Below are positions 5,242 through 5,801 of a DNA stretch of 28,549 nucleotides, piece by piece. Source of the stretch: Escherichia coli (GTDB lineage Bacteria; Pseudomonadota; Gammaproteobacteria; Enterobacterales; Enterobacteriaceae); the NCBI RefSeq assembly GCF_003334385.1, contig NZ_QOWN01000056.1. One strand, given 5' to 3'. Every line of letters starts with the position of its first letter. Position 1 is the stretch's first letter. Below the pieces are notes generated by a model. It was not told the origin of the DNA. It was given only the letters and a program-made list of their open reading frames with translations, and searched no databases. A program made the translations under genes and the position numbers.

Positions 5242-5610
5242 AATAAAAAAAGGGAGCACTGTATTCACAGCGCTCCCGGTTCGTTTCGCAGCATTCCAGC
5301 TACTTTTGTTGCTCCCTGCTCATCCTTGACAACTTTTCCTCTGGCCTTGCGGCCAATCGTTCATCCTGAACTATTGCTTCCTGCTCACACCACCCCGATG
5401 TGATACTTCATCCTGAAGTGTCCCTGGCCTTCCTGACCCACCGAATCATCCTGACCGGTTCTCATTCTCCATCCTGGAGGTGTCCTTTAACGCGTCCTGC
5501 GTCATCCTCTTCGCTTCATCCAGAAGCCTTTCCCTGAAACACCATCCTAGTGTGTCCTGCAGAAGTGTCATCATCCTGATGTTCACTTCGTTGTCTGACT
5601 CCCTGTCGAC
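5242..5610 (-). ncRNA. csrB: CsrB small RNA (CsrA-sequestering), ~369 nt
   Basis: Minus-strand sequence begins GTCGACAGGGAGTCAGACAACGAAGTGAACATCAGGATGATGACAC... with many reiterated CAGGATG/AGGA(U)G motifs in predicted loops. It ends in a GC hairpin (5252..5277) plus a U7 run. No plausible CDS. Confidence 0.88.
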
Positions 5611-5783
5611 GAAGATAGAATCGTCTTTTTCGCGAAGTCTTACAAGGCGCTTACAGACAATGCCTTAAGGAAAATTTCATATGAAAGTTAAGAATTAACA
5701 ATCAACATTTTGATTTTAAATGAAAATAACGATTCTTATCTTTTTAAGTATTCGCTTATTTCCTGGCGATCTCCTACAGAGTC

Positions 5784-5801
5784 TGTAAGAGATCTCTCAC
5801 A
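5784..5801. promoter_or_regulatory. 18-bp perfect palindrome TGTGAGAGATCTCTTACA, the UvrY (BarA/UvrY) upstream activating site of csrB
   Basis: tgtaagagatctctcaca at 5784..5801, about 175-190 bp upstream of the inferred csrB 5' end; matches the UvrY/SirA box as I remember it. Confidence 0.65.

Follow-up and report, generated by a model that had tools for sequence, protein, structure and literature searches.

In enteric bacteria, carbon metabolism, biofilm formation, motility, and virulence are under the post-transcriptional control of the global regulator CsrA, whose main antagonist is the small RNA CsrB. Upstream of the Pseudomonas RNAs RsmY and RsmZ is an activating sequence of the same palindromic form (TGTAAGN6CTTACA), and titration by these RNAs is likewise GGA-based.

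For E. coli csrB, UvrY binding has been mapped by ChIP-exo and by DNase I footprinting with phosphorylated UvrY (Zere et al., 2015; PMC4682653). The published site is an 18-nt nearly perfect palindrome, TGTGAGAGATCTCTTACA, centered at -183/-182, and a partly conserved TGTAGGAGA has been reported 5 bp downstream of this repeat (PMC4682653). A putative IHF site lies between the repeat and a promoter-proximal UvrY crosslinking zone; the latter extends from -56 to +25, and an in vitro footprint was absent there (PMC4682653). UvrY binding in vivo drops approximately 35-fold without BarA, and IHF is required for full UvrY binding and for CsrB levels that are approximately 10-fold higher; expression of CsrC does not depend on IHF (PMC4682653). 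With regard to the RNA itself, the published numbering counts 22 GGA sites, including site 22 within the terminator stem and five in the +263 fragment (Vakulskas et al., 2016; PMC5027483). Decay of CsrB needs RNase E cleavage at A327/A331; CsrA bound to GGA sites 20/21 shields CsrB from RNase E, and CsrD overcomes this shielding (Vakulskas et al., 2016; PMC5027483).

Identity and Genomic Context of csrB

The DNA analyzed here (the window) is a stretch of 28,549 nucleotides of the E. coli chromosome. Positions 5242..5801 almost certainly comprise E. coli csrB and the control region upstream of it; the gene lies on the minus strand, running from a start (+1) at 5610 to its terminator at 5242. 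A search against Rfam release 15 at gathering thresholds, with only the best family retained per clan, finds four matches in the window; CsrB (RF00018), at 5242..5601 on the minus strand, scores highest (376.9 bits vs. a gathering score of 71; E = 6.2e-110), and this match is untruncated, extending over model positions 1-356 of 356. In the curated record of K-12 MG1655 (NC_000913.3), csrB (b4408) is a 369-nt ncRNA at 2924156..2924524, between yqcC and syd, and in an alignment this feature maps to the minus strand at window positions 5242..5610, placing +1 at 5610. The gene is identical to its K-12 counterpart at 368/369 positions, as are 779/780 alignment columns across window positions 5142..5921. 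Gene order (gudP-yqcA-truC-yqcC-[csrB]-syd-queF-ppnN) is likewise common to the window and K-12; csrA, uvrY, barA, and csrD are all located outside the window. On the basis of the Rfam match and K-12 identity, 5242..5610 (minus strand) is thus a 369-nt ncRNA gene for a CsrA-sequestering sRNA with 22 GGA triplets. These results bear out the first-pass annotation of this DNA, which had claimed a 369-nt csrB region, had flagged it as a known element, and had named an Rfam scan for CsrB as the check on which the claim would stand or fall.

The csrB gene and its UvrY site are both already known, and there is nothing new about the gene here. What this analysis itself establishes is sequence identity, gene boundaries, enrichment of motifs, a predicted fold backed by covariation, conserved control elements, and a non-coding character. 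Every step of binding and regulation comes from the literature and is placed on the window through sequence identity; these steps would be expected to operate here as they do in K-12.

Each of the 5426 complete E. coli genomes searched has a match to a query of window positions 5150..5900, and in 5404 the match covers at least 80% of the query with at least 95% identity. The sole difference from K-12 across the gene and control region is a C-to-U change at RNA position 62 (window position 5549), which changes CAGGAUG to UAGGAUG at GGA site 4. In the Rfam alignment, C62 takes part in the pair that closes the hairpin bearing GGA site 4; the change turns this closing C-G into U-G, and pairing is therefore kept. 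The exact 61-mer with C62U is found in 7 of 5413 complete E. coli genomes, and the strains carrying it are those that are 100% identical across the 751-bp query. As an allele, C62U is rare, and it has no evident consequence.

GGA Motifs and Predicted RNA Structure

The RNA strand of the 369-nt gene contains 22 GGA, 14 AGGA, 9 CAGGA, 8 AGGAUG, and 5 CAGGAUG motifs; the opposite strand of the same 369 nt contains 2 GGA. The mean for the minus strand of the window is 5.0 +/- 2.75 GGA per 369 nt, with the csrB region as the maximum (22). When compared with 2000 dinucleotide-preserving shuffles of the csrB RNA, enrichment is evident for AGGA (14 observed vs. 4.8 +/- 1.9; maximum 12), for the CsrA-type motif CAGGA (9 vs. 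1.3 +/- 1.1; maximum 6), and for AGGATG (8 vs. 0.33 +/- 0.57; maximum 3). For bare GGA, the excess (22 vs. 14.8 +/- 2.5) is less marked, given that GG and GA dinucleotides are retained in the shuffles. An initial estimate of about twenty CAGGA(U)G/AGGA repeats is accurate if GGA is counted (22), and generous for the longer motifs (14 AGGA and 9 CAGGA). The GGA positions found here agree with those published for CsrB, including the total of 22 sites, the location of site 22 in the terminator stem, and the presence of five sites in the +263 fragment (PMC5027483).

The predicted fold of the RNA has an MFE of -118.4 kcal/mol (z = -3.9), and 0 of 100 shuffles fold as well. As the first-pass annotation had suggested, the GGA motifs were counted in predicted hairpin loops: in the MFE fold, hairpin loops hold 9 of the 22 in full, a further 7 are single-stranded elsewhere, and the other 6 are paired or mixed, such that 16/22 are fully unpaired. 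The mean unpaired probability is 0.80 in GGA triplets vs. 0.36 elsewhere. An RNAalifold consensus of nine sequences (the window RNA and the CsrB regions of Citrobacter, Pluralibacter, Yersinia, Serratia, Edwardsiella, Mixta, Pantoea, and Dickeya) contains 53 predicted pairs; at least one compensatory double change is seen in 21 of these, and the GGAs in loops are conserved. From the near-identity to the K-12 RNA, we infer that CsrB of the window would bind and sequester multiple CsrA dimers (PMC5027483; PMC4682653).

The terminator scan places an intrinsic terminator at 5242..5277 on the minus strand, consisting of a hairpin (5252..5277) and then UUUUUUUAUU (5242..5251). The hairpin is GC-rich, with 11 bp that include 7 G-C pairs, and GGA site 22 sits within its stem; TTTTTTTATT, with the U-tract, comes next, closing the gene. 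The Rfam consensus has a terminal hairpin at the position of the csrB terminator, and pairing within this hairpin is preserved via compensatory changes across nine genera. The RNase E "necessary cleavage site" of the literature, A327 and A331 (PMC5027483), maps exactly onto window positions 5284 and 5280, respectively, and 5280..5284 (minus strand) is by sequence identity the putative cleavage site here. This segment is identical to that of K-12, is unpaired in the MFE fold, and is located directly upstream of the terminator. In our own GGA count, sites 20 (5313..5315; RNA nt 296) and 21 (5295..5297; RNA nt 314) together occupy 5295..5315 on the minus strand, and their positions agree with the 1-22 numbering of PMC5027483.

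Control Region Upstream of csrB

The 18-nt inverted repeat at 5784..5801 has the plus-strand sequence TGTAAGAGATCTCTCACA (minus strand, TGTGAGAGATCTCTTACA) and spans -191..-174 (center -183/-182) relative to the csrB start. Its assignment as a UvrY (SirA/GacA-type) site is based on identity to the footprinted site: the 18-mer is letter-identical to the published sequence, with a matching center at -183/-182 (PMC4682653), in agreement with the earlier proposal that it is the UvrY activation site. That proposal had also described the 18-mer as a perfect palindrome; the position is correct, whereas the perfection is not, in that 8/9 positions pair and position 4 (G) is mismatched with position 15 (T), as is consistent with the published wording, "nearly perfect" (PMC4682653). 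In common with promoters of the BarA-UvrY regulon, TGTGAGAGATCTCTTACA (general form TGTRAGN6CTYACA) is found far upstream of the csrB promoter. The identity of this predicted site rests on the footprint match, on its position, and on linkage to GGA-rich sRNA genes across Gammaproteobacteria. Binding and activation by UvrY-P, with IHF assisting at csrB, have been shown on identical K-12 DNA (PMC4682653) and, given this identity, would be expected of the window. An additional UvrY half-site, TGTAGGAGA, lies 5 bp downstream of the repeat (5770..5778 on the minus strand; -168..-160), as recognized from its sequence and the published report (PMC4682653), and is conserved as TGTRRGAGATCG in 17 Enterobacterales genera.

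Between the repeat and the promoter, in agreement with the published map (PMC4682653), a pattern match identifies an IHF-like site, AATCAAAATGTTG, which fits WATCAANNNNTTR, at 5703..5715 on the minus strand (-105..-93). The IHF pattern has only 3 matches on both strands of the window, one of which is the overlapping partner of this site on the plus strand (5700..5712). Within the IHF-like site, an AAATCAA-N4-TTA block is conserved across genera.

The probable core promoter (5615..5645, minus strand) is composed of TTGTAA (5640..5645), a 17-bp spacer, and GATTCT (5617..5622), with +1 at 5610; GATTCT falls within a conserved GATTCTAT block (5615..5622). A consensus promoter scan misses the csrB promoter, and its sole match is internal to the gene, at 5571..5544 (1 found vs. 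1.0 +/- 0.9 expected). Thus, the -35 and -10 hexamers are putative assignments made from spacing and cross-genus conservation only. The scan result fits a weak, activator-dependent promoter. Two direct copies of TGTAAG, with first bases at 5655 and 5644 (-45..-40 and -34..-29), are present at 5639..5655 on the minus strand; these resemble UvrY half-sites and are inside the crosslinking zone, and might have a role there.

In an alignment of the upstream region from 17 Enterobacterales genera, mean column identity across the whole alignment is 56%, and conservation is concentrated in islands: the repeat (invariant except at the R/Y positions), the TGTRRGAGATCG half-site, AAATCAA-N4-TTA, CTTGTAAGAC at -35, GATTCTAT at -10, and the start, GTCGACAGGGAG. 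Within the -35 element, TTG is invariant; most of the 17 genera keep the GATTCTAT block.

A 12-bp perfect palindrome, TTTCATATGAAA, is situated at 5675..5686 (-76..-65; center -70.5), between the IHF-like site and the -35 element. Allowing one mismatch at most, it has a fixed distance of 96-98 nt from the UvrY repeat while the flanks vary, in Escherichia, five Citrobacter species, two Pluralibacter, two Pseudocitrobacter, and one Enterobacter. These fixed-spacing cases account for 12 of the 16 occurrences of TTTCATATGAAA in 1.08 Mb of locus DNA. A related palindrome, TTTTATATAAAA, is present in K-12 csrC at -80..-69. A text search of the literature for TTTCATATGAAA returned cloning primers only. 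It is conceivable, although rather unlikely, that TTTCATATGAAA is a further operator in the csrB control region that we did not find described; if so, a further regulator might act there on csrB, and possibly on csrC as well. Equally, the palindrome may be an AT-rich spacer that one clade has retained by descent, or an element that has already been described (Martinez et al., 2014).

Distribution of the UvrY Repeat

A scan for TGTRAGAGATCTCTYACA, using one genome per species, yields at least 120 loci. Among the matches listed, the taxa are Gammaproteobacteria or proteobacterial MAGs, with the exception of one Porphyromonadaceae contig; the groups include Enterobacterales, Vibrio, Photobacterium, Shewanella, Alcanivorax, Halomonas/Vreelandella, and Kangiella. 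Some Photobacterium genomes have tandem CsrB copies, and some Vibrio genomes have several separate copies.

A segment was regarded as GGA-dense if it comprised 250 nt on one side of the repeat, 60-300 nt away, with at least 10 GGA and a count above that of every background window of the locus. By this definition, 106/125 repeat copies adjoin a GGA-dense segment among the matches listed, and most of these segments have 18-24 GGA vs. background means of 1-4. In most Vreelandella, Halomonas, and Alcanivorax loci, which are grouped here with the short RNAs of the RsmY/RsmZ type, the repeat adjoins GGA-enriched segments of 8-13 GGA per 250 nt. Rfam CsrB is found beside the repeat in 11 of 17 sampled loci, and the gap between the repeat and the start of the Rfam match is 166-195 nt in Enterobacterales (183 in the window and in Citrobacter). 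No CsrB-clan match at the gathering threshold was found in the sampled Alcanivorax, Vreelandella, Kangiella, Shewanella, Salinicola, and Porphyromonadaceae loci. By itself, the exact 18-mer marks Csr/Rsm-type sRNA genes with high specificity, including some that the Rfam model misses.

Alternative Readings of the Locus

Because these RNAs all have repeated GGA motifs and, upstream, an inverted repeat dependent on UvrY/GacA (PMC4682653), the GGA-rich segment might be a different member of the clan, such as CsrC or an RNA of the RsmY/RsmZ type. This reading is refuted by sequence identity and synteny, and its probability is negligible: the best family in the clan is CsrB, over the full length of the model; the gene matches K-12 csrB at all positions other than that of the C62U allele and is in the same place between yqcC and syd; and K-12 csrC encodes a 246-nt RNA between yihA and yihI, with a weaker repeat, TGTGAGACATTGCCGATA. 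The segment might also be protein-coding, given that four ORFs of 45-71 aa, with start codons, overlap csrB (71 aa at 5188..5403, 45 aa at 5400..5537, and 62 aa at 5480..5668 on the plus strand; 46 aa at 5446..5586 on the minus strand), and that their translations still match orthologous DNA in close relatives. However, several of the tblastn matches in Citrobacter, Pluralibacter, and E. cloacae are split across frames or cover the ORF only in part, and all of them fade at the rate of the DNA; by contrast, YqcC and Syd, encoded on either side, each align over their full length without a break, down to 42-48% identity. Indels within csrB between genera are of 1-2 nt, not multiples of three, and a CDS is annotated at csrB in neither the curated K-12 record nor one PGAP record. 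Coding potential was rejected for all four ORFs on the basis of these frame breaks between genera, and it is highly improbable that any of them encodes a genuine small protein. The view of the first-pass annotation that the region has no credible ORF, and that the six-frame ORFs lying on it are spurious, is therefore upheld. It had further remarked that ORF-based annotation misses the gene, and this holds for the one PGAP RefSeq record examined, which is identical to the window and has no csrB feature between yqcC and syd; the curated K-12 record does have the ncRNA. A covariance-model pass is needed for csrB to be labeled correctly and for calls of hypothetical proteins to be avoided.

With csrB taken as the gene, the 18-nt repeat might nevertheless be a chance palindrome, or a signal at the 3' end of syd, rather than a control element of csrB. 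Near-palindromes of equal quality are common, in that the window has six 18-mers with at least 8/9 self-complementary pairs vs. 3.0 +/- 1.9 in shuffles; palindromy alone is consequently not significant, and as evidence for the UvrY site it was rejected, being at chance level in the window. Moreover, the repeat starts 20 nt past the syd stop codon (5821..5823), and among the matches listed the end of syd is within 100 nt of the repeat in 47/120 loci. Against this, the 18-mer is identical to the UvrY site footprinted with DNase I (PMC4682653), and the repeat is invariant while its flanks diverge. There is no T-tract after the repeat, and the terminator scan does not call it. Among the matches listed, a syd homologue is absent from the examined locus DNA in 63/120 loci, many of which nonetheless have the GGA-rich segment, and the great majority of repeat copies have the GGA-dense neighbor described above; Vibrio loci L008, L021, L030, and L031 have 18-19 GGA per 250 nt without syd. 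A role as syd terminator was rejected, given that the repeat lacks a T-tract and tracks GGA-rich sRNA genes where syd is absent, and there is very little chance that the repeat is anything other than the UvrY site that controls csrB.

Proposed Regulation and Turnover

In the regulatory scheme that the literature and the mapped elements suggest, the sensor kinase BarA would phosphorylate UvrY, and UvrY-P would bind the 18-nt repeat at -183/-182, next to which is the half-site 5 bp downstream. IHF would be needed for full activation, for which the IHF-like site near -100 is the candidate; bending of the DNA by IHF at this location could bring the distant UvrY to the weak sigma-70 promoter. In the resulting 369-nt transcript, most of the 22 GGA motifs are predicted to be exposed in hairpin loops or unpaired spacers; the motifs would bind many CsrA dimers, thereby titrating CsrA off mRNA targets of lower affinity. 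Turnover would begin with RNase E at A327/A331, just upstream of the terminator; CsrA at GGA sites 20/21 would block this cleavage, and CsrD would relieve the block.

Comparison with Related Regulatory RNAs

The closest counterpart of the locus is K-12 csrB (b4408), which has the same length, boundaries, neighbors, terminator, 22 GGA motifs, promoter region, IHF-like site, and UvrY repeat as the window. CsrC of E. coli and Salmonella shares with CsrB the GGA-based sequestration of CsrA and the use of UvrY/SirA at a far-upstream repeat (PMC4682653), but differs in being shorter (246 nt in K-12), in its locus (yihA-yihI), and in the weaker symmetry of its repeat. RsmB of Pectobacterium and Dickeya, and the CsrB homologues of Yersinia, Serratia, Vibrio, and Photobacterium, belong to the same Rfam family (82.9-380 bits) and have the exact repeat upstream; their GGA-loop hairpins are backed by compensatory changes, and they differ from CsrB of the window through divergence outside the GGA loops and the 3' third. 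RNAs of the RsmY/RsmZ type differ from CsrB in that they are much shorter and have fewer GGA sites.

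Sequence elements of the csrB control region

The csrB gene encodes a 369-nt CsrA-sequestering RNA. Its upstream region holds a second near-palindrome (window 5672..5689; 12-bp core TTTCATATGAAA at 5675..5686), centred at −70.5 relative to the transcription start and flanked by the IHF-like site on one side and the −35 element on the other. With at most one mismatch allowed, this core keeps a constant spacing of 96–98 nt to the UvrY repeat, the near-perfect 18-nt inverted repeat known as a UvrY site, in Escherichia, Citrobacter, Pluralibacter, Pseudocitrobacter, and one Enterobacter. 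These fixed-spacing cores account for 12 of the 16 total occurrences in 1.08 Mb of loci (≤1 mismatch, among the matches listed), and the flanks around the core are variable among the genera that share the spacing. The core was not found in E. cloacae, Kosakonia, Pantoea, Serratia, or Yersinia when upstream regions were compared across genera. In K-12, csrC (the second Csr sRNA gene) carries TTTTATATAAAA at −80..−69. A text search of the literature returned no mention of a palindrome at −70 of csrB.

Closer to the promoter, two direct copies of TGTAAG, the core of the UvrY half-site, are present at window 5639..5655 (−45..−40 and −34..−29), 11 bp apart and overlapping the −35 region. The promoter-proximal zone that holds these copies is crosslinked by UvrY in vivo, without an in vitro footprint (PMC4682653). 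TGTAAG occurs only six times in the whole window, counting both strands, and three of these occurrences are in the csrB control region. The sequence CTTGTAAGAC is kept in about half of 17 aligned genera, chiefly the Enterobacteriaceae nearest E. coli.

csrB and its neighbors in E. coli

The yqcC start codon (window 5199) is located 42 nt downstream of the csrB 3′ end (5242), on the same strand, and the promoter scan called no promoter-like site between the two (5199..5242). Because this gap is short and lacks a called promoter, yqcC-truC may rely for its expression on transcripts that read through the csrB terminator or start at a promoter within csrB.

The window also carries a rare C-to-U allele at position 62 of the CsrB RNA (window 5549); an exact 61-mer spanning the U allele was matched in 7 of 5413 complete E. 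coli genomes. With the substitution, one of the GGA hairpins is closed by U-G instead of C-G, and the hexamer TAGGAT, which resembles a −10 element, arises 16 bp downstream of ATGACA. This ATGACA/TAGGAT pair was the sole promoter-like site called by the promoter scan, and is at chance level.

Across the E. coli collection, the 751-bp csrB region was covered at <80% in 22 of 5426 genomes, and a 61-mer inside csrB had no match in 13; these low-coverage or unmatched genomes may be natural isolates in which csrB has undergone an insertion or deletion. A plasmid record in the collection also carries one copy of this region.

Other RNA genes in the window are GcvB (23782..23987, + strand; a full-length match at 199 bits), the ES036/CssrF sRNA (27003..27045, − strand; 46.5 bits vs. 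a gathering score of 37.6), and, at the very end, tRNA-Met with anticodon CAT (28473..28549, + strand). GcvB and CsrB also occur together in Yersinia and Edwardsiella loci, within ~7 kb of each other.

The UvrY-type repeat in other genera

Several loci recovered with the exact 18-mer contain tandem duplications, with two repeat copies 500–1640 bp apart: five in Photobacterium (L015, L027, L062, L073, and L103) and one in Shewanella atlantica (L069). In three of the tandem Photobacterium loci the repeat-to-repeat spacing is 700–790 bp, and L015 has two Rfam CsrB matches side by side. Several Vibrio have three separate repeat loci per genome among the matches listed.

Outside Proteobacteria, the 18-mer was found only on an uncultured Porphyromonadaceae contig (L044, 14541..14558; among the at least 120 loci listed), where it has neither a GGA-dense neighbor nor an Rfam match and is probably a chance match. 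Exact UvrY-type repeats adjoin GGA-enriched segments in non-enteric loci of Shewanella (L080, L012, and L019; 18–19 GGA per 250 nt), as well as Alcanivorax (L005, L016, and L056), Vreelandella (L007, L046, and L048), and Kangiella (L026 and L040), the last three genera at 7–13 GGA per 250 nt. At the Rfam gathering threshold there was no CsrB-clan match in L080, L005, L007, or L026, the four of these loci that were scanned. The exact 18-mer picks up candidate Csr/Rsm-type sRNAs that are beyond the reach of the curated CsrB model (RF00018).
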